DNA from: Hyphomicrobiales bacterium
Lineage (GTDB): Bacteria > Pseudomonadota > Alphaproteobacteria > Rhizobiales > Methyloligellaceae
Length of the DNA stretch: 64,000 nt
Direction of reading: 5' to 3'
NCBI GenBank assembly: GCA_965228625.1
Contig: OZ245829.1
Location: 615,137 to 679,136, forward strand
The notes under the pieces were generated by a model. It saw only the letters and a list, made by a program, of their open reading frames with translations. It searched no databases and had not been told where the DNA came from. A program made the position numbers and the translations under genes. The number at the start of each line of letters is the position of its first letter. The first letter of the stretch is position 1. Shown piece by piece: positions 3,607 to 63,982 of the stretch.

Positions 3607-3630
3607 ACCTGGCCAGCCCCGGACAAACTG

Positions 3631-5108: not shown

Positions 5109-5151
5109 ACCCAGGGCGATCCACTGCCGATCGCCTCACCTCAATGCCAGG

Positions 5152-5183
5152 ACGGCCCGGTCTTCTGACCGGGCCGTTTTTTT
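5152..5183 (+). terminator. rho-independent terminator of ompW
   Basis: 11-bp perfect stem ACGGCCCGGTC/GACCGGGCCGT, 4-nt loop, followed by a T7 run. Confidence 0.75.
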
Positions 5184-5190
5184 GGCTGAT

Positions 5191-5667
5191 CTAATTCTGC
5201 GTGAGTTGCCTGACGAAATCCGCGATACGGGCCGCGAGTTCCGCACCAACGACATGGTCGGCCTTGACCGCCAGCACGGCTGCGACCGGCTGCGGCAATA
5301 ATGCATCAACCATTGCCTGCGCCGGCGCGGCCGCCGAGTGACCTCCATAGGTCAAAAACAACCCGACCCTGGACGGAAGCCGGGGCTTGCCGGCCAGAAG
5401 AGCCCGCAAGGGCAGCGCCGGATAGCTCGTCCAGATGGGCGCACCGAGCAACACCAGATCATAGTCGGCATATCTGGTCTCCGGGATATCGATCGGCGGG
5501 AGGTTTCCCCTGACGCTGTCGTAACCGGCACGCAGATAGCGCAACGCGCCAGAACCATATCGATCACACTTGATCTCGGTGACATCCGCATGCAGAGCAT
5601 CGGCAAGCGCCGACGCAAGCCTTCGCGTGGTCCCGGTGCGTGAATAGTAGACGATGAGAGTTTTCAC
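5191..5667 (-). CDS. flavodoxin family protein
   Basis: MKTLIVYYSRTGTTRRLA N-terminus (FMN phosphate loop), 158 aa. Confidence 0.75.
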   Translation of the reverse strand: MKTLIVYYSRTGTTRRLASALADALHADVTEIKCDRYGSGALRYLRAGYDSVRGNLPPIDIPETRYADYDLVLLGAPIWTSYPALPLRALLAGKPRLPSRVGLFLTYGGHSAAAPAQAMVDALLPQPVAAVLAVKADHVVGAELAARIADFVRQLTQN

Positions 5668-5903
5668 AGCTTCGCCGTCCCCGCATGCCTTTCTTCAGCG
5701 GTCAACTCCAGAAGACAATCGTGAATGGGCGCCGCCGCGCCGACATTGACCTGCCTCAATGCCTTTCCCGACGGGATGCCCGCTGGCTTCAGGATGATCT
5801 GAGAGGGTGTGCTCTTCGTAACGAAGCGGAATCAACACCAAATCTTCATGCGCGTTGCGGGACGGCACCGCGCTCGGCAACCGGCACACGGGCCAGACAA
5901 AAC

Positions 5904-7484: not shown

Positions 7485-7505
7485 CTTCCCTCAGGATCCA
7501 GACGA

Positions 7506-8168
7506 TCACTTCCAGTGCGGCGGATACGCGTTGTCGAAACCCTCGACCGCCTCGATGCGTTCGCGCCACGCGTCGAGGTTCGGCCAGTGCTTCCTCAAGG
7601 GGACCACGCCGAGCTTCATCGGCTCGGCTTCGGGACGCGCGGCGGCACGGCAAAGCTGCATGACGACCGGGAAAACGACCAGATCCGCGGCGCTCAAAGT
7701 CTCACCGGCAAGCCACGGCTCGGATGCAAGCCCCGTTTCGAGCAATACAAGCTCATCACGCACGCGCGCCATGGCCGCGGCAATCCGATCTGCGAACTCC
7801 TCGCCTTTTCCGCGAAAGAGTGGACGCGAGATATCCCCGATGCACTCCCGCAGGTAACCGTCGCATTCACTGATGACCTGCCAGATGCGGGCTGTCTGTG
7901 CTGGCGTCACTCCAAACAGCGGGGGCTCCGGCGCAATGGCGTCGAGATAGGCGAGAATCGCGAACGTCTCACAAACGACGGTGCCGTCGTGGACGAGGAC
8001 CGGAACCTGGCCGCGCGGATTGATCTTCAGAAACTCCGGCGCCTTTTGCTCGCGCTTGGCGTTGTCGAGCCGTCGGGGTGTATAGCCGATCCCCTTGACC
8101 TCCAGCGCCAGCATGACGGTCCAACACGGCGGCGAACCGGAAATGAAATACACATCGCACTGGGTCAT
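7506..8168 (-). CDS. glutathione S-transferase
   Basis: Start at MTQCDVYFISGSPPCW (ATG 8168). Thioredoxin-like N-domain with INPRGQVPVL..., 220 aa. Confidence 0.8.
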   Translation of the reverse strand: MTQCDVYFISGSPPCWTVMLALEVKGIGYTPRRLDNAKREQKAPEFLKINPRGQVPVLVHDGTVVCETFAILAYLDAIAPEPPLFGVTPAQTARIWQVISECDGYLRECIGDISRPLFRGKGEEFADRIAAAMARVRDELVLLETGLASEPWLAGETLSAADLVVFPVVMQLCRAAARPEAEPMKLGVVPLRKHWPNLDAWRERIEAVEGFDNAYPPHWK

Positions 8169-8290
8169 GAAAAGGTCGCCCGATTGACGCCACACAGGCC
8201 GTGGCATCAGCATATGCCCGCAACGGTGGTGGACGGCAAGGGACAATCGCAGGCGCGAAAGCCGACGCTCAGCCCGGCAATACGGTCCGT

Positions 8291-9091
8291 CTATGTCGGC
8301 GCCTTGTGAAAACCAAGTTGACCCGGGGTTGCGATGTCCGCCCCGTTGCTGCGCACATAATCAAGCAGCGTAGAGAGATCCTGCGCGTTTCGCTCACCGT
8401 AGATCCGCGTCAGAACGCCGGCCAACGGCGTGCTCTTCCGCAACAACTGGACGTCCTTCACGAACCCTTCTCGACGGTTGATCTGACCGAGGACCTTTTG
8501 CTTCCTGAGGTTCGACAAGGCACGGCTGACCGTATCCGCGTTGAGACCGAGATAACCGCCGATTTCCTCGCGGGTCATGGGCAGCGGAATGGAGACCCCA
8601 TCGACCATCTTGCGCCCCTGCCTCAGGACCATTTCGAGGACGAAAGACGCAACCCGCTGTTGCCGGTCGAGTGTTCCGAGCAAGACGTTTTGCAGCGCGA
8701 ACCGCTCGGTCTGATAGGCGGAAACGCGAACCAGGGCGCGGCCCAACCTCCGGTCCTGGCCCGCCCGCGCGATGATCTCGCGATGCGGCACCTTGGTCAG
8801 CGAAGCATCGCTGAGCGCCCGTGCCGTCGTGTTCGGCAGAAGATAGTTGAACGCGGTGCACAGGAAATCACCGGGAAACCGGAACCCGAGCACCTGGCGC
8901 CGCCCGTCGATGAGAACCGTTTCAAGGATCAGCACGCCGCGCGTAACCATCAGCAGGCCGTCTTCGCGGGTCTGGTCATCAACCACGATGTCATGACGTT
9001 CGAAGTCCCGGGACGGAAAACTCTTCAGCCAATTCAGGACCAGCTCTGGTGTGCTCTCCTGCGCGGATGGCGTCACATCTCGCGATGACAT
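8291..9091 (-). CDS. Crp/Fnr family transcriptional regulator
   Basis: cNMP-binding-like domain followed by HTH (MTREEIGGYLGLNADTVSRALSNL). Start uncertain (9091 or 9190). Confidence 0.8.
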   Translation of the reverse strand: MSSRDVTPSAQESTPELVLNWLKSFPSRDFERHDIVVDDQTREDGLLMVTRGVLILETVLIDGRRQVLGFRFPGDFLCTAFNYLLPNTTARALSDASLTKVPHREIIARAGQDRRLGRALVRVSAYQTERFALQNVLLGTLDRQQRVASFVLEMVLRQGRKMVDGVSIPLPMTREEIGGYLGLNADTVSRALSNLRKQKVLGQINRREGFVKDVQLLRKSTPLAGVLTRIYGERNAQDLSTLLDYVRSNGADIATPGQLGFHKAPT

Positions 9092-9290
9092 TTGCAGGCT
9101 CCTTGCGGGAGGCGAAGTAAAGCGCCCCGCGGACACATCTTGCACGTCGGCACGAAATGCTAGCGCGCACGCCTGTTCGCGCTTTGACATGCGTCAATAG
9201 TCTTCTGCGACTTTTGTCGTGGAGGTGTTGCCCGAAAATCAGCCAGCGCATGCAATCTCGCGCTTCGATGACGCGTGATCTGGCAAAGCG

Positions 9291-11351
9291 CTAGTTACAG
9301 GCGTCGACGTTCTCGAAGCTGAGCAACGTGCCGTTCTGATCCGTCACTTCGAGAATTCCGGCGAAGTTGCCGGTGCCGCGGCAAATTACGCCGGCGTTCG
9401 GCGCTGTGGTGACCTGATTGCCCGTGCTGCCGGCCGCGAGGGTCGTGCCCGCCGCATCAAAGAAGAAGGCGTCGTCATTGGCCCCGCCATTGCCGATGTT
9501 TGTGAGCGTGTTGTCCGCCAGCAGGACGTTGGTATTGCCGGCGCTTATGATGATGCCAACATTTGCCGTGCCGTTAATCGTGTTGCCCGAGATCGTCAGG
9601 TTGGTGTTGTTGTCGTTGATGAATATCGCATCGTCGCGCGTATCGACGATCGTATTGTTCGAAATCGTCACATTGGTGTTGCCGTTGTTGGAGCCGAGGA
9701 AGACGCCAACTTGTGTGTTTGTCAAAACGTTGTCAGATATGACCACGTTCACGTTGTCCCGATCCTGCAGGAACGCGCCGTTCGATCCGAGATTGGTCAT
9801 GATGTTGCGCGCAATCGTGATATTGGCGTTTTGCTGCTGGAAATGGACGCCGTCACCGCCGATATCCGTGAGGGTATTGTCGATGATGCGGACGTTTGAG
9901 TTATCGTCGTCGAAAAACACCGCATCTTCGCCAGTATCGGTTATCGTGTTGTTTTCAATCACGATGTTGGTCAGGTTATCGCGACCGCGGATACCGTGGT
10001 TGTCCGCGCCGACCCCGGGGTCGCCGACAATGTTCAATCCGGCAATATGGGTGTTGTTCGCGACGTTGAACACGCCGGTATCGGGATTTGTGTCATTTGA
10101 GAACAGCGTCGGCGTATTGCCGGGAGCGGTAAAAGGCACCACCTGACCCGAATTCTTGCCCCGGATGAGAATCGTGCTGCCGCCGCCCTGCACGGTTTGA
10201 TTGTCCTGCAGTATCTGGCCATCGGTGCCCGAGAGGTCGATCTGCGCGCCATTGCGCTGCACGATGATGAGCCGGTTGCCGCCAGCGTTCACCGCATCTC
10301 CGAGCTGGTTCGCGTTGGTGGCAAAGCTCACGGAGTTGAGAGCGACGTCGGTAGCGTCGTCAATGGCACCTTCCGTCGCCGTCGTGATGTCGGTCTGCTC
10401 GTTGGTGACGATGTCGGTGTCGCGCTCAAGGCCATCGGTCATGCGCAATTCCTGCGGTGTCAACGACGCGGTGCGCAACGCCGCGTCTGCGCCACGCGAC
10501 CCGAAGGGAATGCGCAGGCGCGCACCGATCTCGAACCTGGTTTCGCGTACGTCGTCGTAGGAAAGCTCGCTCTCGATGGTGAGGCGCGATCCGGGAAGCG
10601 ACGCGATCGCGTCATTGATGCGGTATTCAAGACGCCCTTTGGGACCGGCGATTTCGTCGTCCGCGTCATCATGATCGAACCAGAAGCCGCCGGCATAGGC
10701 TCTGAGTTCATGGCGCCTGGACGGTGCCAGGCCGTCCTTGAAACCCCCGGCCGTTCCACCGCGGGCACCGCCAAAAAGGAGAACGCCGAACTCCGCATCG
10801 ACCCCGTAATAGGCGAGTTCGCGGATCAGCGTATCTGTTTGCTGCACGAAGATGTTGTTGCCCTGAAGCAGTGCCGCAAACGTCGTCGTGTTCGAGACCG
10901 TTTCGTCGTCTTCGATCGGCACGTAGCCGTTGACGCGCAGATCATAGCGCTCGCTCAAGGCCTCGAGACCGAATGAGATCTGGTTGAACGTGTTATCGTT
11001 CGTTGTATCGCGGATATCCCAGCCGCCCCAGATGCCGAAATTCCAGCCCGAAGGCATCATCTGCCGGTAGCCGAGCGCGATATTGGCTTCCTGTACATCC
11101 TCTTCGAACAGCTTGCCGCGCGCATCGAGAAAGAACAGGGTTGTCGCCGACTGCATCAGCGGCGTGAACAGCACGATCTCGCCGCGGCTGCTGTCGTCGG
11201 TGCCGTAATAGCCGCCGAGCTCCCACCATCCGATGAACTTGTTCGGCGAGCCGGCGGTCACGTCCGAAGCGCGCGCCGAACCGGTGTAGAAAAACACAAT
11301 CGCCGCGACAAGCGCGAGAAATGCTGTCAGAGATTTGAACCGGGCCGTCAA
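9291..11351 (-). CDS. inverse autotransporter (type Ve) with right-handed parallel beta-helix passenger
   Basis: Signal peptide. N-terminal region matches the intimin/invasin beta-barrel pattern (NIALGYRQM...GIWGGWDIRD...SFGLEALSERYDLRVNGYVPI). C-terminal half has about 10 PbH1-like repeats (N-x-I-x-D/N-T/N...). Confidence 0.65.
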   Translation of the reverse strand: MTARFKSLTAFLALVAAIVFFYTGSARASDVTAGSPNKFIGWWELGGYYGTDDSSRGEIVLFTPLMQSATTLFFLDARGKLFEEDVQEANIALGYRQMMPSGWNFGIWGGWDIRDTTNDNTFNQISFGLEALSERYDLRVNGYVPIEDDETVSNTTTFAALLQGNNIFVQQTDTLIRELAYYGVDAEFGVLLFGGARGGTAGGFKDGLAPSRRHELRAYAGGFWFDHDDADDEIAGPKGRLEYRINDAIASLPGSRLTIESELSYDDVRETRFEIGARLRIPFGSRGADAALRTASLTPQELRMTDGLERDTDIVTNEQTDITTATEGAIDDATDVALNSVSFATNANQLGDAVNAGGNRLIIVQRNGAQIDLSGTDGQILQDNQTVQGGGSTILIRGKNSGQVVPFTAPGNTPTLFSNDTNPDTGVFNVANNTHIAGLNIVGDPGVGADNHGIRGRDNLTNIVIENNTITDTGEDAVFFDDDNSNVRIIDNTLTDIGGDGVHFQQQNANITIARNIMTNLGSNGAFLQDRDNVNVVISDNVLTNTQVGVFLGSNNGNTNVTISNNTIVDTRDDAIFINDNNTNLTISGNTINGTANVGIIISAGNTNVLLADNTLTNIGNGGANDDAFFFDAAGTTLAAGSTGNQVTTAPNAGVICRGTGNFAGILEVTDQNGTLLSFENVDACN

Positions 11352-11515
11352 CCGATTTCCCCCCAGAAGCCAGTTCTTTCCTGCCTATTCTTTGTGCACT
11401 TTATTCGTGAACAGTGCCGCCAAGCTATCAACTCAGAGTTGAAATATCCGGTTGTGGTCCGCGTTTGTGCTCTTTGCTCAGGTTGTGTTGCGGAATAGCT
11501 ACAGATTTGACCAAT

Positions 11516-11550
11516 CAATGATTGTGTATTCTTTATTGTTGCAATCATTG
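11516..11550. promoter_or_regulatory. inverted repeat CAATGATTG-N17-CAATCATTG in AT-rich upstream region of the inverse autotransporter
   Basis: Read directly. 9-bp perfect arms about 165-200 bp upstream of start 11351. Confidence 0.2.
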
Positions 11551-11788
11551 GTTGCTCGACTTGCGTTGTTTATCGTCATGAACCCTGGCGATGAGGATTC
11601 GTTTGTCCTGGATCGCGCGCTGATGGAGGCCGAAGCGTATCCATGCCTCAAGCAACGCATGACATTTCGGCGGCCCGGACGCGGTTTGGGCGGCACGATA
11701 TGTGACTGACTCCATGCTATGTTTGGTCCAATATGCAAGCTTGGCTGACAGCACCGAGGTCACAAAAACCGCGCAACATGGGGACATA

Positions 11789-12028
11789 ATGCAGCGTGCT
11801 TTGGGATTTCTGCTTATCGGACTCGCGGTCGCCGGCACGGCTGCGCAAATGGCGTACGGCTTGCACACCCATGTCGGCGAGGTGTTGCAGGCGGTGCTTG
11901 GGCCATACGTCACCGATACTTTTTCGACACCGGTCGGCGCGGCGGTCATTTACGGGTTCTTCTATTTCCTGGCCGCGTGCGGCCTCGTTCTCCTGGCGAC
12001 GGCAAATCGCGCCCGCTCGACGAAGTGA
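11789..12028 (+). CDS. hypothetical small membrane protein (79 aa)
   Basis: MQRALGFLLIGLAVAGTAAQ... has two hydrophobic segments. Weak SD, no family recognised. Confidence 0.3.
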   Translation: MQRALGFLLIGLAVAGTAAQMAYGLHTHVGEVLQAVLGPYVTDTFSTPVGAAVIYGFFYFLAACGLVLLATANRARSTK

Positions 12029-12098
12029 AACCGGAGTGTGGCGAACGTGCCCCGCCGCAACCAAATGAAAGTGCAACCCACGGAAGGCCACGTCTGAG

Positions 12099-13109
12099 AT
12101 GATGCTGAAGACACCGGAGGAGTCGCTGCCGCAGATCGCGGTGCTGGATGTCAGCGAAGACTGGCCGGTCGAAACGCTTCGGCTCGCGCTTGAAGAAACC
12201 CACGCGCTGCTGGATGAGGCCGCCGCCGATTACCCGGCGATCGCGCTCAAACTTGGCGATTCGATCTCCCGGCGCTGGCTCGAGCGTGCGCGTAACCCGT
12301 ATCTGGGCGAAATGGACCGGATATCGCAGATCATCGCCCGGCCCGGCGCGTATTACTTCAATGCCAGCTATGAATGGACGTGCAGCACCTGCGCGGGACC
12401 CGGTCCGGACGGCGGTTCGGCGCGGCTGATGCGGGTGCTTGACTGGCAGACTCCGGGCCTCGGCCGCCACGTGATCGCCGCCCGTGTTACCAGCGAAGCG
12501 GGCCCCTGGGTTACCTTCACATGGCCCGGCTACACCGGCGTGCTACAGGCAATGGCTCCGGGGCGGTTTGCCGCCGCCATCAACCAGGCGCCGATGGAAC
12601 GGCCCGTGGGCCTGTTCGCCCTCGACTGGATGGTGAACCGGGCAAAGATCTGGCGCAGCGCCGAGCCGACACCGGAGCATCTTCTGCGGCGCGTGTTCGA
12701 GACCGCGAAGAGCTTTCGCGAAGCAAAAGAGATGCTCGTGAGCACACGGCTTTGCGTCGGCGCTATCTACACGTTGAGCGGCGTCGCTCCCGACGAAGCC
12801 TGCGTCATTGAACGCACCGAAACTGGCACTCACATCGTCGAGGGACCGGCGAGCGCGGCGAACGCCTGGCAGAACAGCCAATGGGGCGGTCTTGTGCGTG
12901 GCGAAAACAACGAAAGCCGGCGTGAGATGATGGCCGCCCAGGAGCGACGGCTCGACAATGGCTTTGCCTGGCTTGAGCCGCCAGTCAGGAACGACCTTAC
13001 CCGTCTCGCGATGGTTGCCGATGCCGCGCAGGGCCGAGCGATCGCGCAAGGATACGAAGCGGAGGGCCCGGTCACACAGGTGCTTTCGCTTGAAATGCAG
13101 CCCGCCTGA
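12099..13109 (+). CDS. Ntn-hydrolase-like protein (acid ceramidase / NAAA / choloylglycine hydrolase-like)
   Basis: 336 aa. YEWTCSTCA (candidate Cys nucleophile, compare CTS in acid ceramidase/NAAA) followed by RVLDWQ (R-x-x-D). Function call tentative. Confidence 0.5.
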   Translation: MMLKTPEESLPQIAVLDVSEDWPVETLRLALEETHALLDEAAADYPAIALKLGDSISRRWLERARNPYLGEMDRISQIIARPGAYYFNASYEWTCSTCAGPGPDGGSARLMRVLDWQTPGLGRHVIAARVTSEAGPWVTFTWPGYTGVLQAMAPGRFAAAINQAPMERPVGLFALDWMVNRAKIWRSAEPTPEHLLRRVFETAKSFREAKEMLVSTRLCVGAIYTLSGVAPDEACVIERTETGTHIVEGPASAANAWQNSQWGGLVRGENNESRREMMAAQERRLDNGFAWLEPPVRNDLTRLAMVADAAQGRAIAQGYEAEGPVTQVLSLEMQPA

Positions 13110-13135
13110 CGCACACCCAGGGGCAATGGGCCTCG

Positions 13136-14947
13136 TCAGACCACCTTGTTGTCTGCGTCCACGACCGCATCGCTGCGATCGGTTTCGTCCTGCTCAAAAA
13201 GATCCTTCAACTCTTCGGAGCGTTCTCTCGCAAGAACCTGGAGCTTCTGCTGGTCCGTATAGTGCTCGTAGTCGCCATAAAGGTGACGGCGATCGAACTC
13301 GCGGAACGTGTCGATCGTTCGTGTCACCGCCCGTTCTGAATCGCCCAGACCGCGCAAGACTTCACGCGTGATATCCAGCGACGAGAGAAACGTTTCCCGA
13401 CGAATGAATTCGACCCCCACATCCATGAGCCGATGCACGTGGTCGCGGTTTCGCGCCCGGGCATAGATCGGCACGTGCGGGAAATGGCGACGCACCAACT
13501 CCGCCGTTTTCAGGGATTTCTCCTCATCTCCGATCGCCAGAACAAACGCGCGCGCCTTGCCCACCTGCGCCGCTTCAAGGATGCTGAGACGGGTTGCGTC
13601 TCCATAGTACGCCTGACCGCCAAAACGACTCACGAACTGAACCTGCTCCGCCGATCCGTCGAGTGCGGTGAACGGAATACGGCGCGCCTGCAGGACGCGG
13701 GCAACGATCTGTCCGACCCGCCCGAAACCGGCGATGACCACATGCCCCTGCTCATCCGGCATCTCGTCGTAGGGGCGGTCCTCCGGCTCGCCGGCGCGTG
13801 TGAGCAGCTCGTCCGCGAGCAACAACAGCGGCGTCGACAGCATCGACAACGTGACGATAACGGTCAGCAGTTCCGCCAGATCCCGGCTGATGACGTTCTC
13901 GCCAAGCGCGGTCGTGAAAATGACGAAGGCGAATTCACCGCCCTGCGATACCGCCAGTGCCAGCCGGCGCGCGGCGCGATTGTCGAGACCGTTCCAGCGG
14001 CCGAGCCCATAGAGCACGATGGCCTTGATGGTCAGCAGGCCCACGACACATACGATGATCAACCCGAACTGCTGCACCAGAAGCTGGAGATTGAGCATCA
14101 TGCCGACGGCGGTGAAGAAAAGCCCGAGAAGCAGACCTTCGAATGGTGCGATGTCGGATTCAATCTGGTGACGATACGGCGAGTCCGCGAGCAAGGCACC
14201 GGCGAGAAATGCCCCCAACACCGCGGACAGACCGGCAAACTCCATCAGCAGGACAACGCCGACAACCGTCAGCAGGGCGCTGGCGGTCATCGCCTCCCGG
14301 ACGCCGGTCATGGCCACAAGCCGGTAGACCGTGGACAACGCGTAACGGCCAACGATGATGACCAACAGGATCGCGCCGATGGCGCTTATGATCTTGACCA
14401 GTGAAACGCTCTCGTCCGCGCCCGCAGCGCCGAGCAGCGGCACGATGGCAATCAGCGGAATGGCCGCCATGTCCTGAAACAGAAGTACGGAGAACGCGGC
14501 ACGGCCGTGGCGCAGTCGTAGTTCTCCCTTTTCCTCCAACACCTGGAGCACGAAAGCGGTCGACGAGAGCGCCAGCGCAAATCCGATGAGGACGGCATCG
14601 TCCCACGGAACACCCATGAACCCGATGACGGGTATCAGCAGAGCCGCCGTAATCGCCACCTGGCTTCCGCCCAGGCCGAAGACCGATCCGCGCATGGTCC
14701 AGAGGCGCTTGGGTTTGAGCTCCAGGCCGATCAGGAACAACAAAAGCGCGACACCGTATTCCGCGATGTGGAGAATACTCTCGACATGATAGACGGTGTA
14801 GACGAAGCCAAGGCCGAATGGCCCGATCAGCACGCCTGCGGCGAGATAGCCGAGCACGGAGCTGATATGCAGTTTCTTCGCAATCGGCGCGGCAATTGCG
14901 GCCGCGGCCAGGAAGACCGCGGCCTGAATAAGAAAGCTTCCCGTCAT
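13136..14947 (-). CDS. monovalent cation:proton antiporter-2 (CPA2) family, glutathione-regulated K+ efflux KefB/KefC-like
   Basis: Start at MTGSFLIQAAVFL (ATG 14947, SD GGGAG). Na/H exchanger membrane domain plus C-terminal RCK/TrkA-N motif VVIAGFGRVGQ. Confidence 0.85.
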   Translation of the reverse strand: MTGSFLIQAAVFLAAAAIAAPIAKKLHISSVLGYLAAGVLIGPFGLGFVYTVYHVESILHIAEYGVALLLFLIGLELKPKRLWTMRGSVFGLGGSQVAITAALLIPVIGFMGVPWDDAVLIGFALALSSTAFVLQVLEEKGELRLRHGRAAFSVLLFQDMAAIPLIAIVPLLGAAGADESVSLVKIISAIGAILLVIIVGRYALSTVYRLVAMTGVREAMTASALLTVVGVVLLMEFAGLSAVLGAFLAGALLADSPYRHQIESDIAPFEGLLLGLFFTAVGMMLNLQLLVQQFGLIIVCVVGLLTIKAIVLYGLGRWNGLDNRAARRLALAVSQGGEFAFVIFTTALGENVISRDLAELLTVIVTLSMLSTPLLLLADELLTRAGEPEDRPYDEMPDEQGHVVIAGFGRVGQIVARVLQARRIPFTALDGSAEQVQFVSRFGGQAYYGDATRLSILEAAQVGKARAFVLAIGDEEKSLKTAELVRRHFPHVPIYARARNRDHVHRLMDVGVEFIRRETFLSSLDITREVLRGLGDSERAVTRTIDTFREFDRRHLYGDYEHYTDQQKLQVLARERSEELKDLFEQDETDRSDAVVDADNKVV

Positions 14948-51576: not shown

Positions 51577-52068
51577 ATGATGAGTTCTATCGCAAAGACC
51601 ACAGCTATCCTGGGCATCGCGACACTTGCCATGGGCGGGCTTGCCCAAGCCAGCGATGTTCGCACCCCCGTCTATCCGAAAGGCGCGAAACCGATCGCGC
51701 CGTATTCGCCGGGGATCAAACTGTCAAACGGGCTGCTCTTCGTTTCCGGCCAGATTCCCTATGTCGACGGCGCCATTCCGGAACATGCCAGTGACGGCAA
51801 GGATGACATGGCCGATCAGACGAAAATCGTCATGGAGAATCTGCGAACTGTTCTCAGCGAAGCCGGCTACACCTTCGACGACGCCGTCCGCGTTACCGTG
51901 TTCATGACCGACATGAAGAACTACGGCGCGTTCAACAAGGTCTATGGAACGTACTGGGGCGAAGGAAAGACACCCCCGGCGCGTGCCGCCGTCGAGGTTG
52001 GCGAGCTCCCTGGCAGCAAGCCCAATGCCCCGGTGCTCGTGGAAGTTTCGATGATCGCCGCGAAGTAA
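51577..52068 (+). CDS. RidA/YjgF family protein with N-terminal signal peptide
   Basis: MMSSIAKTTAILGIATLAMGGLAQA/SD then YSPGIK..GLLFVSGQIP...ARAAVEV. SD GAAAGGAAA. Confidence 0.8.
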   Translation: MMSSIAKTTAILGIATLAMGGLAQASDVRTPVYPKGAKPIAPYSPGIKLSNGLLFVSGQIPYVDGAIPEHASDGKDDMADQTKIVMENLRTVLSEAGYTFDDAVRVTVFMTDMKNYGAFNKVYGTYWGEGKTPPARAAVEVGELPGSKPNAPVLVEVSMIAAK

Positions 52069-53829: not shown

Positions 53830-55440
53830 CTAGCTGGCGCTGCAGCGTTGTCTGTTCTTGTCTACGACGAGTGTCTCCAGCTCCACAGGCAATGCTCCCT
53901 TCCATGGCGTGTGAAATGGAACGGCGACCTCGGTCTCATTGATCGGGTCGGAGAACAGCGGCGCCTTTTTTCGCACACCCTCTACAAAGTTCACCATGAT
54001 TTGCTTGATACGCTTTTCGCTGGAGCGCCAAGGTTCTTTGTCTGTGGCACCAAATGTTCTGCCAAGGTCCTTTGAACCGAAATGGAGGACGTAGCCCGAG
54101 CCTGGCGTGCGTTGCATCACGGACATTGTGCCGAGCGTGTGTCCCACTCGATGACCAAGCTCGAATCCCAGTATTTCGTACTTGTACGCTCCAATCCTCT
54201 GCCGGTCGGGAACGGGAAGGCCCAGAGAATCGAAACCAATCAGGGGCGCACCGTCCCACTCCCTCGTTGCGAGTAGCGGCAAACAATCAAAACGCGTCAG
54301 GCCGGTGCCCTTGAACAGAGGATGGTTGGGCTGGGTGATAATGTAGCCACCCCAGCCCTTGGCCTCCTTTGGCCTGCGGAATTTCCCAAATCCACCCTTC
54401 TTGAAGTCGGCGCCCGTGCTTCGGTAAATCGGATAGTCCAGTCGCTTCTGGTGCCAGTTCGTCGTCTCAAGGGGCGTGCGCGCCAACGGATCGTTATGTA
54501 TCGAGCCGGTCTTGTACGATACCAGTACCGACCGGTCATCTCCCTCATATCGTGCCTGCCACCAAAGGGCGTTCCCGCCGGCGATGATCACGTGACCGCC
54601 GCGTGCAACAAAACCGTCGAAGGTCTCGCGGGCGCGCCGTGTCCAGTACTCGGGATGTCCGACGACCATCAGGACGTCAATTCCATCGAGGACTCTTGGA
54701 TCGTCCATCTCCCAGTCCGTCAGAAATGTAATGTTGGTTTCTTCACCGAATGGCTTGTCATTCGCGACCCACTTGACCAGTGGCAGCCACAAGACGGAAT
54801 GCGACCTGTGCATTGGCCTGTAGAAAGAGACTTTCGGAACGCGCACGGGATGAGAGTAGAGGCTCCGTCCAAGGGTTGTGGCGTAGGCATTGAAGGTATT
54901 TGTCCCGATCAGAATCGCGATATTCCTGCAGCACGCATTCTGGTTCGGGGGAAGCGCTTCCCGCTTCAGGGAATGCTCGTCATTCAGGACAAAGAACAGG
55001 TATGGCGAGTCGGCAACAAAATACAATCCGGGGCCGAATGTCGATGTATCGATCTTTGCCGTGACGTCGAAACCCGCACCGTCCAACCATGGCTTCAAGC
55101 CTTTGTACTCCTGCCGCCTCAGTGCTACGGGGGGCGTCAAGTGACGCGTGTCGCCATGCACGTCGGTGATTGCGAGGCGACGGAGTTGCGTTCTGATGTT
55201 TTGAGCGCTCAAAGCGAGCCCGAGCGTATCGCCAACATTTGCGCTCCACCCGGGTGCGACTATTTCCCCGTCCGGAGACAATTTGACAATGTAACCTTCG
55301 GCAATATCCTCACCGCTGACAGGAAAGTACTTCTCTGATACGGAAACTGCGCGCCATACCGCGAAGCACACGATCAAAATGACCGCAAAACTCAAACTCC
55401 ACGCCCCGGCCAGGCGCACAAAGGTGCCTTTCTCGCTCAT
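53830..55440 (-). CDS. membrane-anchored protein with N,N-dimethylformamidase beta-subunit-like (class I glutamine amidotransferase-fold) C-terminal domain
   Basis: N-terminal TM (LAGAWSLSFAVILIVCFAVW). IAILIGTNTFNAYATTLGRSLY and VVGHPEYWTRRARETFDGFVARGGHVIIAGGNALWWQARYE resemble DMFase large-subunit C-domain homologues. Lower GC than flanks. Confidence 0.5.
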   Translation of the reverse strand: MSEKGTFVRLAGAWSLSFAVILIVCFAVWRAVSVSEKYFPVSGEDIAEGYIVKLSPDGEIVAPGWSANVGDTLGLALSAQNIRTQLRRLAITDVHGDTRHLTPPVALRRQEYKGLKPWLDGAGFDVTAKIDTSTFGPGLYFVADSPYLFFVLNDEHSLKREALPPNQNACCRNIAILIGTNTFNAYATTLGRSLYSHPVRVPKVSFYRPMHRSHSVLWLPLVKWVANDKPFGEETNITFLTDWEMDDPRVLDGIDVLMVVGHPEYWTRRARETFDGFVARGGHVIIAGGNALWWQARYEGDDRSVLVSYKTGSIHNDPLARTPLETTNWHQKRLDYPIYRSTGADFKKGGFGKFRRPKEAKGWGGYIITQPNHPLFKGTGLTRFDCLPLLATREWDGAPLIGFDSLGLPVPDRQRIGAYKYEILGFELGHRVGHTLGTMSVMQRTPGSGYVLHFGSKDLGRTFGATDKEPWRSSEKRIKQIMVNFVEGVRKKAPLFSDPINETEVAVPFHTPWKGALPVELETLVVDKNRQRCSAS

Positions 55441-55573
55441 CAGCAGATACTTCTAGACCATGAAAAGTGGGGTTGAGATTGGTCGTACGGTCAGAATTCT
55501 TGGAGTGCAATCGAACTCAGACTTAAGCCTATCGTCTTTGTCAGGCGAATCAACTTTTGTACCGGACGTCTAG

Positions 55574-57067
55574 ATGGCGAAGCGTCATCCAGGTCATAAC
55601 TGCGCATCGATCGTGTCGGGCGCCCTTCTCGGGCATGGCGCGAAACACGCAATTTCGTGCGAGGGTGACGCCTACACGCGCGAAGAATTCCTGCGTGAGA
55701 TTGCGACAAGGCGGGCGCACTTTCGTCACAACGATGTCGGTCGCGACACCCGCGTCATTCTCGTCTCCGGACGCGGCTCGAAATTCTGGGCCGACTTCGT
55801 TGCGTTGTGGTCGCTTGGTGCTGTCGCCATTCCATTGGATCCAACGATAGACGAACGCCACGCAAGCGAGATCTCTCGCGCAGCCCGTCCAACGCATATC
55901 ATCGGAGAATTCAAGGTTCCGCCTGCAGCTCTCGACGGCCTGAAACAAATCGGCGAGCCCGAAGAAGACGTCGAGGGCGACCGGGACCCTTATGGCGGCA
56001 TCGAAATTGAACCGGTGGAGCCAGGTGAACTGGCCGGTCTCTTCTTCACCTCAGGATCGACCGGCCTGCCCAAGGGCGTCATGATCCGTCACGAAATGCT
56101 TGTCGCGAACATGTACGCGACACAGGCTCGGGTGAACCTGCTGCGCTCCGACAAACTCTTCATGGCGATCCCTTTCCGGTTCATCTCCTCGATCTCGCAT
56201 TTTCTGGTGACAATCCTCTCAGGAGCGAGCTTTGTCGCGACCGAACGGAACCTCATGCCCAAGGCCTTCATACAGGCGCTGCATTCCGCCGACATCACCG
56301 CATTCGGCGGGTCTCCGTTGCAAGTGCGGTTGATCAGCAGCGCGCCGAAGGACATGTTTCCGCGCCTGCGCTGGATCATGTCATCCGGGGACCATCTGTC
56401 CGAGGAGATCATCGAGGCGATGCGCCGGGCGCGTCCTGAGGTCGATATCAATACCGTGTACGGCCTGACAGAGTTGGCCGGACGGTTCTGCATGCTCCCG
56501 CCGGAACAGATCGACGCCAAAAAAGGGTCCGTCGGCCGTCCGATTCCCGGCCTCGCCGTGATCGTGCTCGATGACGACGGGCGACAGTGCGGCACCGGTG
56601 AGATTGGCCATGTCTACGCGCAAGGCGTGTGCTGTCTCGAGGGTTACATCGGCAACGAGGCGGCGACGCGCAAAGCCGTGACGCCGCATGGATTTCGCAC
56701 CGGCGATATGGGCATGCTCGACGAAGACGGTGATCTGTTCCTTGCGGGGCGATCGGACAGCGTGTTCAAGCGCTCCGGCCTCAAGGTCTCGTGCATTCCG
56801 ATCGCAGACGAACTCATGAAGCTCGACGCGTTTGCCGACGTCGCGGTCTTGCCGCGCGACGATGATCTGGAGGGCGCTGTCCCGGTGGCTTACGTGGTCT
56901 TGAAAAACGAAAAAGAGGTTGATCGGTCCAACGTGCTAGGGGCGCTTCGCTCCCGACTGTCGCCCAAACATCTTCCGGCCGAGTTCATCGTTTTGGATGA
57001 GATTCCGCGAACACGTTCCGGCAAAGTCAAATCGCATGAACTTGCCAAAATGCCAAAGCCGAGTTAA
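55574..57067 (+). CDS. ANL-superfamily adenylating enzyme, DltA-like carrier-protein ligase
   Basis: 497 aa. FFTSGSTGLPKGV (A3), YGLTE (A5), RTGDMG...GRSDSVFKRSGLKV (A7/A8), PRTRSGKV (A10). Confidence 0.8.
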   Translation: MAKRHPGHNCASIVSGALLGHGAKHAISCEGDAYTREEFLREIATRRAHFRHNDVGRDTRVILVSGRGSKFWADFVALWSLGAVAIPLDPTIDERHASEISRAARPTHIIGEFKVPPAALDGLKQIGEPEEDVEGDRDPYGGIEIEPVEPGELAGLFFTSGSTGLPKGVMIRHEMLVANMYATQARVNLLRSDKLFMAIPFRFISSISHFLVTILSGASFVATERNLMPKAFIQALHSADITAFGGSPLQVRLISSAPKDMFPRLRWIMSSGDHLSEEIIEAMRRARPEVDINTVYGLTELAGRFCMLPPEQIDAKKGSVGRPIPGLAVIVLDDDGRQCGTGEIGHVYAQGVCCLEGYIGNEAATRKAVTPHGFRTGDMGMLDEDGDLFLAGRSDSVFKRSGLKVSCIPIADELMKLDAFADVAVLPRDDDLEGAVPVAYVVLKNEKEVDRSNVLGALRSRLSPKHLPAEFIVLDEIPRTRSGKVKSHELAKMPKPS

Positions 57068-57112
57068 CTGGCGGAGGCTCGGTCAGGCAATGCCAACGGT
57101 GTGCAACTTTCG

Positions 57113-58105
57113 ATGAAGAAGTTTTTCGGAGCAACTCTCGTCGTTTGCCTCGTTCTTGGCTTTCTGATCGTTCGCGGCGACAGCGCAGAGGTCAGATATC
57201 GCGGCTCGGACTGCAACTACTATCTGACATACGAGAACACCGGACCCATCAGTCTGGCGGGCTTTGGCGGCTCACGCATGCGGACGGCGTTTGACGCCGA
57301 CGACCTCGCGCGGATCCTGAGAGACAGCGGGCATCCCGAAGCAATTGTCTACAATGGCGGGCACAGCCATTACTCCATAGAGAAGGAGTATGTGCTGGTA
57401 CGCGACCTGTTGGAGACCCGGCAGGTGAAGACCGTGGTCGTGATGCTGCAACCCCGCGCGATGGACTACGCCCTCATCAGCCGTGATTTCAAATCCATCG
57501 CACGCGTTCGGGACATTCCGACCATTGTCAACGCGGTTGCCCATGAAAGCCTGGTCGAAGGCGTAGCCACATCTTTCAAGGTCCTCAGCGAAAGACTGAA
57601 GCTTCCCGAGCCCGTTCCGTCCTGTCACGACAAAAAGAATGCCAAACGAAGACTTTGCAAGGTCGCCGTTCATCGCGAAGATCCGACACGCAATTGCCAT
57701 CCGGGAGATTACAGAGCCGACCTTGATCGCCTTCTGGATGCAGAGAGTCGGGTGGAAAAGATGTCAACGCAGATCAGGGAATGGGACCCCACCTCCCTGG
57801 AAAACCGTTTCACTTTGCATTTCATCAAAAGAATCCAGTCGCTCGCCGCATCAAAGGACACTGCGGTGTTCTTTCTGTTCCTGTACCGGACAGGCAAGCC
57901 GTTCTTGCCGGACGGGTTGAGCGAGCGGTTCAAGATGGAAACAGGCGCGGAGCTTTTGATACCGCCCAGGGACATGGTCAGCCAGCTCGCAATCGATGGA
58001 CGACGAGATCCAACGCACATGAATTCAAAAGGGCGCGCGCTGTTCCTCCCCTGGATGATCGCCGAAATCAAATCCAGATGCCCCCGCGCTGACGGATGTC
58101 TCTAG
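57113..58105 (+). CDS. TM-anchored SGNH/DltD-like acyltransferase or esterase candidate
   Basis: Start at MKKFFGATLVVCLVLGFLIV. FGGSRM (block I-like Ser) near the N-terminus and DPTHM (D-x-x-H) near the C-terminus, in the order seen in SGNH/DltD. Confidence 0.45.
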   Translation: MKKFFGATLVVCLVLGFLIVRGDSAEVRYRGSDCNYYLTYENTGPISLAGFGGSRMRTAFDADDLARILRDSGHPEAIVYNGGHSHYSIEKEYVLVRDLLETRQVKTVVVMLQPRAMDYALISRDFKSIARVRDIPTIVNAVAHESLVEGVATSFKVLSERLKLPEPVPSCHDKKNAKRRLCKVAVHREDPTRNCHPGDYRADLDRLLDAESRVEKMSTQIREWDPTSLENRFTLHFIKRIQSLAASKDTAVFFLFLYRTGKPFLPDGLSERFKMETGAELLIPPRDMVSQLAIDGRRDPTHMNSKGRALFLPWMIAEIKSRCPRADGCL

Positions 58106-58117
58106 TCGGGTCGGAAA

Positions 58118-58270
58118 ATGAAGTTGAAAATCGGAAAACTGGCGACACGGAAAAACGTCCTTCACCTCATTCGCAGTTTCTGCGTATACAGCGTGCTCGC
58201 CATTGCCGTTATTTATGCCGTCAATTACTGGCCGTTCGGTGAGATCAGGGCGGTCTATGAACGGTATTGA
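58118..58270 (+). CDS. 50-aa single-TM peptide, DltX-like candidate (MKLKIGKLATRKNVLHLIRSFCVYSVLAIAVIYAVNYWPFGEIRAVYERY)
   Basis: Below the ORF-track cutoff, translated codon by codon. ATG lies 12 nt after the upstream stop. Basic N-terminus, one TM helix, Tyr-containing C-terminal hexapeptide. Confidence 0.45.
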   Translation: MKLKIGKLATRKNVLHLIRSFCVYSVLAIAVIYAVNYWPFGEIRAVYERY

Positions 58271-58322
58271 TGTTGGAATGTTCTGTGCCGATGAGCTGCC
58301 GCTCGCATAGGGGGCCCGGGAG

Positions 58323-59186
58323 GTGGGTGTGCGCGCAATCTTCAAGTCAGCATCCGTTGTCTCATGGCGCTTTGCCAAGCCGCTCGTAATCCTGGCTGTT
58401 TTTGTTGTTCTCTGGAGCGTGGTACTGACGCTGGCGGTGAAGTCCGGATTCCTCTGGGACGTGCTTTCACCCCGCCTGGCCGCGGACCAGCGATACGGCA
58501 CGCAGAACCTGGTCATGAGCACGGCCGACACGGCAAAGCGCGTTCTCGTGATCGGTGACAGTGCGTTCGTGGCGCGCCTCCGGAAAACTGATGACGCCAG
58601 GTCCGATACCGAATTTCTGACCATTGATGCGCTTGACCCGGACGATATCACCACCGCACTCAGCGCGATTGCACGGCACAACAGGAAGCGAGAAAACAAG
58701 GTTCAGTTCTGCAGGCTTGTCCTGCAGGTCTCACCATACTTTGTGGCGCGCATGCGGGATCGGGGAAGCCGCCAAGACGTGACATATTTGCGCGCGCTGG
58801 AGCAGAAAAGTCCGCCATTCATACCGAACAGGTCGACAAAGACCTTTTTCCAGACGCTGACCAAATGGGCACGGACCCGACCGGCCAAGCTGGACACATC
58901 CGATCCGCAACGCCCCCCGGACTTCCCGCCACAGATTTCGACGCCTGATCCCAACCTCGAAAACTGGACGAAGGTTGAAAGACAGCTTCGCAACAGTGCA
59001 GTCCCGGTCGTCGTTGTTGCTGACCGGAGGTTCTCGGACTATGCGCGGGCGCCTCGGCTCCTCGGCTATTTTGACCGCGACTTCCGAGACCGCATCGTGA
59101 GAGGTCAGGAAACGTCCGGACTCACCACATGGGCTGAATTCTCCGACCTGCGCAACTTGGCGTGGGCGACGTGCCCCAGCTCATAG
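58323..59186 (+). CDS. TM-anchored protein with GDS (SGNH block I-like) motif, no C-terminal D-x-x-H
   Basis: GTG 58323 or 58329 (SD GGGAGG). TM PLVILAVFVVLWSVVLTLAV, VLVIGDSAF. Contains only one His (ARHNRK). Confidence 0.45.
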   Translation: MGVRAIFKSASVVSWRFAKPLVILAVFVVLWSVVLTLAVKSGFLWDVLSPRLAADQRYGTQNLVMSTADTAKRVLVIGDSAFVARLRKTDDARSDTEFLTIDALDPDDITTALSAIARHNRKRENKVQFCRLVLQVSPYFVARMRDRGSRQDVTYLRALEQKSPPFIPNRSTKTFFQTLTKWARTRPAKLDTSDPQRPPDFPPQISTPDPNLENWTKVERQLRNSAVPVVVVADRRFSDYARAPRLLGYFDRDFRDRIVRGQETSGLTTWAEFSDLRNLAWATCPSS

Positions 59187-59204
59187 TGACGGGGCAGTCC
59201 GACC

Positions 59205-60356
59205 ATGCTTGGTGACGTTCTTCTCTATGCGATCTTCGTAGCGCTGGCGTTCTGCCTTTATTGGGTCGCGCCGGGAGACCGGCCGAACATTCGCATCGCG
59301 ATCCTCCTGTGCGTCTCCGCTGCGTTCATTTTTCTCGTTTCGCCCGGCGGCTTCCTGTCGGTGCTGGCTCTGTTCGTTGTTGTCATTGTCGCCAACAGGG
59401 TCTTTGTGCGGTTCAAGACGCCTTACATCCTTCCGATTTTTCTCGGCCTCGCCGTTCTCCCGCTTGTTCTGAGCCGCACCCTCGGAGACCTGACTTTCGT
59501 CTTCACGCTCGGCATCGCTTTCGCAACGGTCCGGAGCATCGGCCTGGTGCTTGATTCCTATGCGGGTCGCAACGTGTTGGAAAAGGCTCGTGTTGGGCTC
59601 TATCTGTTCTTCTTTCCCCTGTATGCGGTCGGTCCCGTTGAGAAGTTTGACTCGTTCCAGGCGAGGTGCTTCACGACGCCGTTTGTTCTTGAGAACGTGT
59701 ATGTCGGCCTTACACGCATGGCCTACGGGGTATTTCTGGCCCATTTCGTCTGCGACTCGCTCATTCTGAACGTCATCAACAATTGGCTGCCGGGCGGGGA
59801 AAGAGCATTCGCCGATTTCACCGTCTCGAACGCGTGGTCATACGTGTTTCTGAGATTTCTCTACACGTATCTGAATTTCGTTGCCTTTACCGAAATTGCC
59901 ATCGGCACATGCCGACTGTTCGGGATGCATATCGTCGAGAACTTCAACTGGCCTCTGATCTCGCGGAACATTCAGGATTTCTGGCGGCGGTACCACATTT
60001 CGATGGGCAACTGGATTACCCGTTATCTGTTCTTTCCCGTTGTCGGTGTCTTGCGGACGGACTGGGCGGTCTATGTCGCCAGTATTTTCTCGTTTGTGAT
60101 GTTCGGGTTGTGGCACGCCTTCACACCAAACTACCTGTTTTGGGGAATCATGCACGGGCTTGCCATTGCGACTTACCAATTCTATCGCAATGCCGAACTG
60201 TACGGCCGGATTCAGCGAATGCGGGTAATCGCCGTACCATTTGGTCTGATTGGCGGCATCATGACCATTTGTTACGTTGCGTGGTTGCAAACGTTCGCGA
60301 ACCTCTCGACCTTCGACGCCGGTTTGGAGCTTACGTCCAGGATGATCGGATGGTAG
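59205..60356 (+). CDS. MBOAT family O-acyltransferase (DltB/AlgI-like)
   Basis: Polytopic. FWRRYHISMGNWITRYLFFPV and GLWHAF...WGIMHGLAI match the MBOAT signature including the catalytic His region. Confidence 0.85.
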   Translation: MLGDVLLYAIFVALAFCLYWVAPGDRPNIRIAILLCVSAAFIFLVSPGGFLSVLALFVVVIVANRVFVRFKTPYILPIFLGLAVLPLVLSRTLGDLTFVFTLGIAFATVRSIGLVLDSYAGRNVLEKARVGLYLFFFPLYAVGPVEKFDSFQARCFTTPFVLENVYVGLTRMAYGVFLAHFVCDSLILNVINNWLPGGERAFADFTVSNAWSYVFLRFLYTYLNFVAFTEIAIGTCRLFGMHIVENFNWPLISRNIQDFWRRYHISMGNWITRYLFFPVVGVLRTDWAVYVASIFSFVMFGLWHAFTPNYLFWGIMHGLAIATYQFYRNAELYGRIQRMRVIAVPFGLIGGIMTICYVAWLQTFANLSTFDAGLELTSRMIGW

Positions 60357-60440
60357 CTTGCCGCCGGTTGGCATCGGATCGAAGCGGGGACAAAAGGACC
60401 GCACCTTGCGGCTTGGCCACTCGTCACACAGGAACGGAAA

Positions 60441-60704
60441 ATGAAAGCCGACGACATCAAAGAGAAGCTATATGCCTATTTCTCCCAGGAATGCGGGATC
60501 AACAAAGAGAGCATAGAAGCGAACCAGCCCATCTTCTCGACCGGACTTTTGGACTCGATCGAGTTGATCAAGCTGATCTCATTCATCGACAAGGAGATCG
60601 GGGTTACAATCAACCCGCTGGACATCGGCTTCGATGAGTTCGATACCATTGATCGGATCGTTGCGAATATCGAAAACGCCGCCGCACCATCGCAAGTCGC
60701 CTAA
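60441..60704 (+). CDS. acyl/peptidyl carrier protein (DltC-like)
   Basis: 87 aa, SD AGGAA. GLLDSIELIKLI phosphopantetheine-attachment Ser motif. Confidence 0.85.
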   Translation: MKADDIKEKLYAYFSQECGINKESIEANQPIFSTGLLDSIELIKLISFIDKEIGVTINPLDIGFDEFDTIDRIVANIENAAAPSQVA

Positions 60705-63513: not shown

Positions 63514-63754
63514 GGCACTTCACCTCGACTTTGCTCCGCTCACGATCCGAATGACTGGCCGGACCTTTTGAGCGCACATATTGCGTCTTTGACTCCTAAA
63601 ATGTGCACTTAGTGCGTATTGGTCAAGCGCAGAAGCGCACTCTGTGCATAACTGGCGCAATTTGTGCATCGGGCTCAGTGGTCAGCGGATCGTCAACCGA
63701 GGCGAACGGCTGATCGAAGAAGGAGGCCAGCGGGTAAGGAAAAGACAGGTGCAG

Positions 63755-63982
63755 ATGAGTCCCTACCAGTTTCGCAAATGGCGGAAATCGCTGGGTCTTA
63801 AGCAGAGCGAGGCGGCCGAGCTGCTTGGGCTCAAGAAGCGGATGATCCAGTACTACGAGAACGGCGAGCGGAACGGAAAAAAGGTCAAGATCCCGAAATA
63901 CATCCGCCTTGCGTGCTTCGCGATCCAGAACGGCGTTTCAGACTTCGACGGCGAAAAGGAAACGGCGAAACTCCGGAAGTAG
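63755..63982 (+). CDS. XRE-type helix-turn-helix protein (75 aa)
   Basis: Start at MSPYQFRKWRKSLGLKQSEAAELLGLKKRMIQYYENG (classic XRE HTH). Confidence 0.65.
   Translation: MSPYQFRKWRKSLGLKQSEAAELLGLKKRMIQYYENGERNGKKVKIPKYIRLACFAIQNGVSDFDGEKETAKLRK

Follow-up and report, generated by a model that had tools for sequence, protein, structure and literature searches.

The locus and its relatives

We examined a stretch of 64,000 nucleotides (the window) from a Hyphomicrobiales bacterium (assembly GCA_965228625.1, contig OZ245829.1, positions 615,137 to 679,136), in which an initial annotation, made from the sequence alone, had described a cluster with the parts list of the Dlt D-alanylation system. 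The locus comprises six co-directional genes, a divergent gene and the region between them (Table 1). The six co-directional genes lie in the order A-D1-X-D2-B-C, where A stands for the adenylase, B for a membrane-bound O-acyltransferase (MBOAT), C for the carrier, D1 and D2 for two proteins anchored by a transmembrane (TM) segment, and X for a peptide of 50 amino acids (aa). The divergent gene encodes a DMFase-like protein with a DMFA2_C domain. All open reading frames (ORFs) of the tightly spaced cluster were present as annotated, with gaps of 33, 12, 52, 18 and 84 bp between successive genes, and every motif quoted in the initial annotation was found in the translations. Of the family assignments made there, profile searches recovered those of A, B and C (AMP-binding, MBOAT and PP-binding, respectively), whereas D1, X and D2 had no match to any Pfam or NCBIfam model. 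We found no Rfam family and no sigma-70-like promoter in the divergent intergenic region; the sole promoter match was at 55283-55310, within the DMFA2_C gene.

Table 1. Genes and intergenic region of the locus, with coordinates in the window
Feature	Coordinates	Strand	Length	Remark
DMFA2_C-domain (DMFase-like) gene	53830-55440	-	536 aa	
Divergent intergenic region, DMFA2_C gene/A	55441-55573		133 bp	presumed promoter, from position only
A, ANL adenylating enzyme	55574-57067	+	497 aa	
D1, TM-anchored SGNH-fold protein	57101-58105	+	334 aa	fold read from a model
X, single-TM microprotein	58118-58270	+	50 aa	
D2, TM-anchored alpha/beta protein	58323-59186	+	287 aa	
B, short DltB-type MBOAT	59205-60356	+	383 aa	
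C, stand-alone carrier protein	60441-60704	+	87 aa	

The gene set is a co-inherited module and not a chance juxtaposition, and was found in five alphaproteobacterial lineages as well as on metagenome contigs. A scan for the MBOAT across one genome per species returned six loci, all alphaproteobacterial, from a Hyphomicrobiaceae metagenome-assembled genome (MAG), Pelagibius, an Inquilinaceae MAG, a Cypionkella MAG (two loci) and a Roseobacter MAG. By TBLASTN, A, D1, C, D2 and B were all present in five of the six, with identities of 25-55% to the window proteins; the sixth, L006, lies on a short contig and showed only part of A, D2 and B. As a negative control, a metagenome scan with an MBOAT profile of generic motifs gave 80 mostly unrelated loci and only one weak D1 match. 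The Gram-negative setting described for the cluster was borne out, since each relative of named source is alphaproteobacterial. No teichoic acid is expected in such hosts, and we saw no teichoic acid genes in the flanks of the cluster.

The order of the genes departs from the classical dltXABCD layout, as had been noted, and it is variable among the relatives. In L001 and L003 A lies on the minus strand, followed by D1-X-C-D2-B, while in L004 an aldehyde dehydrogenase (ALDH) gene on the minus strand is followed by A-D1-X-C-D2-B. L007 and L008 have X-D1-ALDH on the minus strand and then C-A-D2-B; C-A-D2-B is also the order in L012 and L013. The metagenome contigs L009-L011 keep the window order D1-X-D2-B-C, with a different downstream gene. 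In L007 the start and stop codons of several neighboring genes overlap, consistent with co-translation. The Hyphomicrobiaceae MAG locus (L001) has phage-like genes (Collar, Phage_lysozyme) 3-9 kb upstream of the module, together with a separate AT3-SGNH acyltransferase (621 aa), which is a second and different envelope-acylation gene; this stretch lies at 611-7026.

Loader, carrier and membrane-anchored proteins

TM segments were called by simple hydropathy, which gave a single N-terminal segment each for D1 (residues 8-26), X (14-32), D2 and the DMFA2_C protein (10-28), several segments for B and none for C. A hydrophobic stretch of A (203-221) scored 1.65, just over the threshold, and was not taken as a TM segment.

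A matched the Pfam models AMP-binding (7e-54) and AMP-binding_C (5e-13), and its catalytic Lys is located in GSGKV. The best NCBIfam matches were all under their cutoffs, including the fatty-acid-CoA ligase PRK06187 (216.7 bits, cutoff 476) and the DltA equivalog TIGR01734 (126.6 bits, cutoff 559.85); the score of 202.9 bits against the exosortase A-associated acyl-CoA ligase TIGR03098 (cutoff 592.35) likewise leaves A outside that family. In HMMER alignments the FD-motif Asp of both LgrA adenylation domains, which we take to be the alpha-amino-binding Asp235 of GrsA numbering, aligned with an Ile of A in PFRFISSISH. The motif PFRFISSxSH, including this Ile, is invariant in six full-length A orthologues, and the corresponding motif in the distant locus L014 is PFRFVSAQSH. 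Our claim on specificity is confined to the Asp235-equivalent position. Because the Ile stands where the alpha-amino group would be bound, A is unlikely to activate an alpha-amino acid, and D-Ala is therefore an unlikely cargo.

C is a PP-binding protein (Pfam, 3.5e-9) with the phosphopantetheine Ser in GLLDSIE, and TBLASTN detected C orthologues in all related loci. It scored against the DltC models NF003464 (35.8 bits, cutoff 68) and TIGR01688 (25.5 bits, cutoff 52.35) below the level of an equivalog, and its PDB matches were the type II peptidyl carrier protein PltL and DltC carrier proteins. The top NCBIfam match was an ornithine-lipid acyl carrier protein (ACP) at 37.6 bits. We dropped this lead to the OlsHI system because the score is far from the cutoff of 130 and the pathway is unrelated.

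For B, the Pfam MBOAT model gave 8.6e-16 (58.6 bits, cutoff 27), the only NCBIfam match was DltB (TIGR04091, 107.3 bits, cutoff 375) and the only PDB sequence matches were the DltB entries 6bug and 8jem (9e-18). His304 of B, in WHAF, aligned with the His of the DltB motif WHG and is invariant in nine orthologues. Judged by its sequence, B is DltB-like and not an equivalog. It ends in SRMIGW and has no C-terminal FXYXXF motif of its own, the motif in which a microprotein of the Dlt system carries the acyl group. DltB passes D-Ala from DltC to the invariant Tyr of the C-terminal FXYXXF of DltX, from where DltD takes over (PMC12148441); an example of the DltX motif is FLYFGF (PMC11035591). In PatA the FXYXXF motif is fused at the C-terminus of the protein itself (PMC12148441).

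X has a counterpart in nine other loci, mostly directly downstream of D1; in L014 and L015 its immediate upstream neighbor is the MBOAT gene. Each of the ten peptides has Y-x-x-Y at its end. An alignment of nine of them left only Y33, Y47 and Y50 invariant; the N-termini are unrelated, and in the X of the window a Lys/Arg-rich N-terminus precedes the TM segment. The last six residues are AVYERY in the window, L001/L003 and L009, AIYENY in L004, AVYEGY in L005, AVYEKY in L007, AVYEAY in L008 and L098, FAYELY in L014, and VIYQNY in L015. Tyr47 of X is at position -4 from the C-terminus, the same distance as the acyl-accepting Tyr in FXYXXF of DltX. X is a real gene, and given this position, and a short MBOAT that lacks the motif, we think the most fitting reading is that of an analogue of DltX whose motif has diverged. 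Tyr47 is the predicted acyl acceptor of this proposed shuttle.

The invariant residues of D1 in seven orthologues include G56-G57-S58-R59 and D303-x-x-H306. In an alignment of 138 members of the D1 family, G56 was conserved in 134, S58 in 137, D303 in 131 and H306 in 137. The AlphaFold2 (AF2) model of D1 (pLDDT 70, pTM 0.74) has an alpha/beta fold with the Ser after strand 1 and DxxH before the last helix. The three top Foldseek matches to the PDB were all DltD (6pfx, 7dxm and 6o93; E 2e-3 to 6e-3, probability 0.98-1.0), followed by PatB (7tlv, 8tlb) and then by generic SGNH esterases; profile searches of D1 and of D2 against PDB sequences returned only noise. The fold ranking, the triad and the TM anchor agree, and from the model we take D1 to be the system's SGNH acyltransferase, a periplasmic functional counterpart of DltD and PatB. 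Word-indexed searches had returned three matches for D1, and its apparent near-uniqueness proved to be an artefact of sensitivity. An exhaustive HMMER search with a profile of three D1 sequences found at least 433 cluster representatives at 50% identity (E<=1e-3), 164 of them at E<=1e-10, so that the system is not unique to this genome. No Pfam domain was found in ten sampled family members. Some members have long C-terminal extensions that lack a Pfam domain, namely P0132 (1169 aa) and P0061 and P0092 (both ~500 aa), and these extensions could reveal acceptor-binding partners. As for the gene starts, the database copy of D1 (P0001, 330 aa) begins at 57113 instead of 57101, four codons later, and that of D2 (P0004, 285 aa) at 58329 instead of 58323, two codons later; the true start of either protein could thus lie a few residues away from the one given here.

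Every locus with the full module has a D2, the distant L014, L015 and L098 among them; in word-indexed homology searches D2 gave 2-6 matches. Its invariant residues include G78, D79, C130, Q135, P138 and D234, and no His is among them; the Gly-Asp after the first strand is followed by Ser (Ala in one sequence). The initial annotation had taken D2 for a duplicate of the DltD-like component, and here our results part from it. We rejected D2 as a D1 paralogue as unproven: the hhalign probability between the two was 3.6%, an invariant His is missing, and the AF2 model (pLDDT 57) gave only mixed generic alpha/beta folds in Foldseek, none of them convincing. D2 is a conserved periplasmic accessory subunit and is probably not catalytic. 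The divergently encoded protein matched the Pfam model DMFA2_C (6.4e-32), has an N-terminal TM anchor and had no PDB sequence match. Its linkage to the cluster was confirmed by homologous DMFA2_C proteins inside or adjoining the module in L005, L014 and L015, which with the window makes four lineages; on this sequence evidence it is a recurrent membrane-anchored accessory component, predicted to be periplasmic.

Cargo, acceptor and genomic setting

The initial annotation had called the cluster complete. Measured against its relatives it is not, because five related loci (L004, L005, L007, L008 and L098) add a conserved ALDH adjoining the module (Pfam Aldedh, ~1e-130) that is missing from the window; nor did we detect an ALDH in the fetched flanks of the Hyphomicrobiaceae locus. 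The ALDH of L098, from an organism with 38% GC, shares 62-65% identity with its counterparts in L004 and L005, whereas the D1 and B of L098 are only 28% and 41% identical to those of the window. Such high identity despite divergent D1 and B speaks for an ALDH that belongs integrally to the system, with the acid as its product; the system-linked ALDH of the relatives thus probably produces the acyl cargo. The nearest matches of these enzymes in NCBIfam and PDB were aminobutyraldehyde, betaine-aldehyde and ALDH1/9-type dehydrogenases. All were below cutoff, and a substrate could not be assigned from them.

Three distant versions of the module bear on its cargo, its loading and its acceptor. In L014 (metagenome contig Ga0438745_371094) the order is C-A-B-X-DMFA2_C-D1-D2, followed at 9857-14709 by six further genes. 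These encode an L-sulfolactate dehydrogenase-like protein, the alpha and beta subunits of sulfopyruvate decarboxylase (alpha 153.5 bits against a cutoff of 147.95; beta 216 against 221.5), an ALDH whose best match is the sulfoacetaldehyde dehydrogenase SafD (489 bits), a phosphatase, and the phosphosulfolactate synthase ComA. As judged from these assignments, the six genes form a complete-looking route that starts from phosphoenolpyruvate (PEP) and sulfite and leads to sulfoacetate, the likely cargo in L014 if the route is read correctly. In L015 (Logan contig SRR26538806_227411, 1663-8742) the ANL enzyme gives way to a class II tRNA-synthetase-like protein, accompanied by a sulfotransferase and by a carrier of its own (85 aa), and D1-D2-B-X-DMFA2_C follow the loader genes. 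From this swap, the membrane module appears to combine with interchangeable loaders. In L098 (ENA contig c_000002798316, GC 38%, 844-13014) the genes D2-B-D1-X-ALDH lie directly upstream of, and co-directional with, a set of sugar genes encoding a UDP-sugar dehydrogenase, an oxidoreductase, acetyltransferases, aminotransferases, a glycosyltransferase and a Wzy polymerase. The UDP-sugar genes among them we take to be WbpABDE-like, and the locus points to a Wzy-type surface polysaccharide or O-antigen as a possible acceptor. Taken together, the relatives suggest as candidate cargos either omega-amino or betaine-type acids or anionic ones, of which sulfoacetate in L014 would be an example.

The flanks of the window cluster are ordinary. 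On one side lie gatB, an amidase gene, and genes for a YbaK-like editing domain, a glyoxalase, DUF5996, a RidA-like protein and a DHDPS-family protein; on the other side are genes for an M20 peptidase, a LysR regulator and a helix-turn-helix (HTH) protein. The initial annotation had reported no glycosyltransferase nearby, and we too found neither a glycosyltransferase nor polymer or polysaccharide genes within ~10 kb of the cluster. We considered the M20 carbamoylase-like neighbor as a supplier of beta-alanine and dropped it, since the closest syntenic relative, L009, has a YCII gene at that place. Two other neighbors deserve mention in their own right. One is the RidA/L-PSP-family gene at 51577-52068 (+), which lies upstream of the DHDPS-family gene in a stretch of lower GC (0.545-0.59). 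Its product carries what looks like an N-terminal signal peptide, MMSSIAKTTAILGIATLAMGGLAQA, an unusual feature in a family of normally cytoplasmic proteins. At the window edge, where GC drops to 0.555, a 112-aa HTH_3/MqsA-antitoxin-like protein is encoded at 63644-63982 (+); a mobile or toxin-antitoxin element, not related to the cluster, may begin here.

The lower GC and third-position GC (GC3) that had been noted by eye for the block are real but modest. We compared the five large cluster genes with the 45 other plausible genes of the window, and obtained a GC of 0.573 against 0.619 (p=0.002) and a GC3 of 0.693 against 0.764 +/- 0.036 (p=4e-5), a difference of ~2 standard deviations; the five genes hold five of the seven lowest GC3 ranks among the 50. 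For the horizontal acquisition that the initial annotation drew from this dip, the support is limited to the modest dip itself, differing flanks in the closest syntenic contig and a patchy distribution. No tRNA, Rfam element or mobility gene was found bounding the low-GC block. D1 had no homologue among 72,556 plasmids.

A proposed carrier-dependent relay and its alternatives

We consider it likely that the cluster encodes a Dlt-type, carrier-dependent relay in which a small carboxylic acid that is not an alpha-amino acid travels from the cytoplasm to a hydroxyl of a periplasmic or surface polymer. The proposal builds on the family placement of A, B and C, on the fold and the triad seen in D1, on the Tyr conserved in X and on the co-inheritance of the module. 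In such a relay, A would adenylate the acid and thioesterify it onto the phosphopantetheine arm of C, and loaded C would dock at the cytoplasmic face of B, where His304 would catalyse transfer across the membrane to Tyr47 of X. The acyl-Tyr tail of X would then swing to D1, whose Ser58, with Asp303 and His306, would take the acyl group, and D1 would hand it to the acceptor. D2 and the DMFA2_C protein may contribute acceptor recognition, a scaffold or acyl removal. The order of the transfers is modelled by analogy on Dlt and PatAB.

The comparison with DltXABCD bears out the parts list claimed by the initial annotation as far as an adenylase, a carrier, a short DltB-type MBOAT, a TM-anchored SGNH protein (D1) and a single-TM peptide (X) are concerned; the cluster is not, however, a Dlt orthologue. 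Both systems have the same five functional roles, a short MBOAT without a fused tail, a stand-alone carrier, a single-TM microprotein with a Tyr at -4 and a TM-anchored SGNH protein, which here has DltD as its best fold matches. The cluster also has the three features of the general MBOAT-SGNH relay class, namely the MBOAT His, the SGNH triad and the Tyr hexapeptide. It differs from DltXABCD by having D2 and the DMFA2_C protein as additional conserved components of the periplasm, by the motif A-V-Y-E-x-Y instead of F-X-Y-X-X-F, by the ALDH linked to it in relatives and by its variable gene order. Equivalog scores two- to fivefold below cutoff, the failure of curated models to see D1 and X, and the Ile in place of Asp put the cluster outside the Dlt family proper.

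A number of points weigh against a relay of the kind proposed. The window has neither an ALDH, nor a precursor pathway, nor polysaccharide genes within ~10 kb, and cargo and acceptor are read from relatives that are 28-55% identical, the acceptor clue coming from the single locus L098. The ALDH of L014 belongs to a different subfamily, with 27-31% identity to the alphaproteobacterial enzymes, so cargos may differ between lineages. The hexapeptide of X has Ala and Tyr where FXYXXF has Phe at the first and last positions. The fold matches of D1 are marginal (E 2e-3 and worse, TM-score ~0.4) and come from a model built from three sequences, and the relay family has no characterised member.

The same evidence has to be set against other explanations. 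It could be that the cluster performs true D-alanylation in a Gram-negative host, lowering the negative surface charge of an outer-membrane component. A precedent exists in the dlt-related dra locus of Bordetella pertussis (Taneja et al. 2013, cited in PMC4448142). It is described as modifying a component of the outer membrane with D-alanine, and shares with our cluster a Dlt-type system in a Gram-negative envelope. The parts list equals that of dltXABCD, the nearest family of B is DltB, and C scores against DltC models. The DltA, DltB and DltC equivalog scores (126.6/559.85, 107.3/375 and 35.8/68, score/cutoff) nevertheless fall far short, no DltD or DltX model matched, the alpha-amino-binding Asp is an invariant Ile, and neither the ALDH of the relatives nor the sulfoacetaldehyde pathway supplies D-alanine. 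The adenylase pocket and the linked genes argue for another cargo than that of dra, and we regard D-alanylation as highly improbable. Still less credible is O-acetylation from acetyl-CoA of the AlgI/AlgJ/AlgX or PatA/PatB type, with A and C as unrelated neighbors. MBOAT and SGNH pairs of Gram-negative bacteria are normally of this type, and share with our proposal a periplasmic MBOAT acylation, an acyl-Tyr intermediate and an SGNH Ser, but they use acetyl-CoA, have no adenylase, carrier or separate microprotein, and bear the Tyr motif on a longer MBOAT (PMC12148441). Although PatB is among the fold matches of D1, B is short, at 383 aa, and lacks both the two extra helices and the fused FXYXXF tail, with SRMIGW at its end and the motif on a separate microprotein. 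A and C are co-inherited with the module and accompany every complete locus, L015 swaps in another carrier-loading enzyme together with a carrier, and the control scan of generic MBOAT loci turned up almost nothing resembling D1.

Modification of a membrane lipid or of lipid A has more to recommend it, although we think it rather unlikely. Here the MBOAT, alone or with D1, would acylate a lipid head group (of an aminolipid, a lyso-lipid or lipid A), and X, D2 and the DMFA2_C protein would be accessory. MBOATs generally acylate lipids, no polymer genes lie near the window cluster, and the top NCBIfam match of C is the ornithine-lipid ACP. Moreover, in Vibrio cholerae AlmEFG a DltA-like adenylase and a DltC-like carrier supply lipid A glycylation, a pair that, like A and C here, feeds a Gram-negative envelope modification. 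AlmG is, however, a cytoplasmic-face lipid A acyltransferase and not an MBOAT, and AlmEFG has neither an SGNH protein nor a microprotein. The ACP match is far under its cutoff, and the OlsH pathway uses a GH3-like enzyme and not an MBOAT. A periplasmic SGNH protein with an intact triad and a microprotein with a C-terminal Tyr are hallmarks of an extracytoplasmic relay, and L098 is embedded in an O-antigen-type cluster. A lipid-anchored acceptor in the periplasm, such as the lipopolysaccharide (LPS) core or a lipid-linked glycan, would also fit the carrier-dependent relay. That the locus is a decaying or silent horizontally acquired island, without function in its host, we judge very unlikely. 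The GC and GC3 below the rest of the window, the missing ALDH of the five relatives and the lack of a promoter-like match in the divergent region would agree with decay, but all seven ORFs are intact and full-length compared with their orthologues, the catalytic and motif residues are kept, and the Hyphomicrobiaceae locus is likewise without an adjacent ALDH, so that this is a recurring layout.

Returning to the carrier-dependent relay, we propose, more tentatively, that the window cluster belongs to a sizeable family for which no curated models exist. Its module would consist of the MBOAT, the Tyr microprotein, D1, D2 and the DMFA2_C protein, served by interchangeable loaders (ANL or class II tRNA-synthetase-like) and by dedicated cargo pathways (ALDH, a de novo sulfoacetaldehyde-to-sulfoacetate route, sulfotransferase), and it might place unusual acyl groups, which could be charged (sulfoacetyl, for example), on O-antigen or on other polysaccharides of the surface. 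We found no description of this system or of sulfoacetyl-type envelope chemistry in the literature searched, which did not cover all journals.

Dlt has been presented as the sole MBOAT-SGNH pathway with a carrier protein and a separate microprotein (PMC12148441). The cluster indicates that this relay design also occurs in Gram-negative Alphaproteobacteria and beyond, with a different cargo, and that current family models miss D1, D2 and X. It yields predicted key residues, namely Tyr47 of X, Ser58, Asp303 and His306 of D1, and His304 of B, while the linked genes of the relatives (ALDH, the ComA/ComDE/SafD-like set, the sulfotransferase and the Wzy cluster) provide candidate cargos and a surface polysaccharide as candidate acceptor. 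If the proposal is true, it would widen the known substrate range of bacterial MBOAT relays, and the modifications of surface charge or antigens would gain a new class, one that matters for the interactions of marine and soil bacteria with phages, hosts and antimicrobial peptides.

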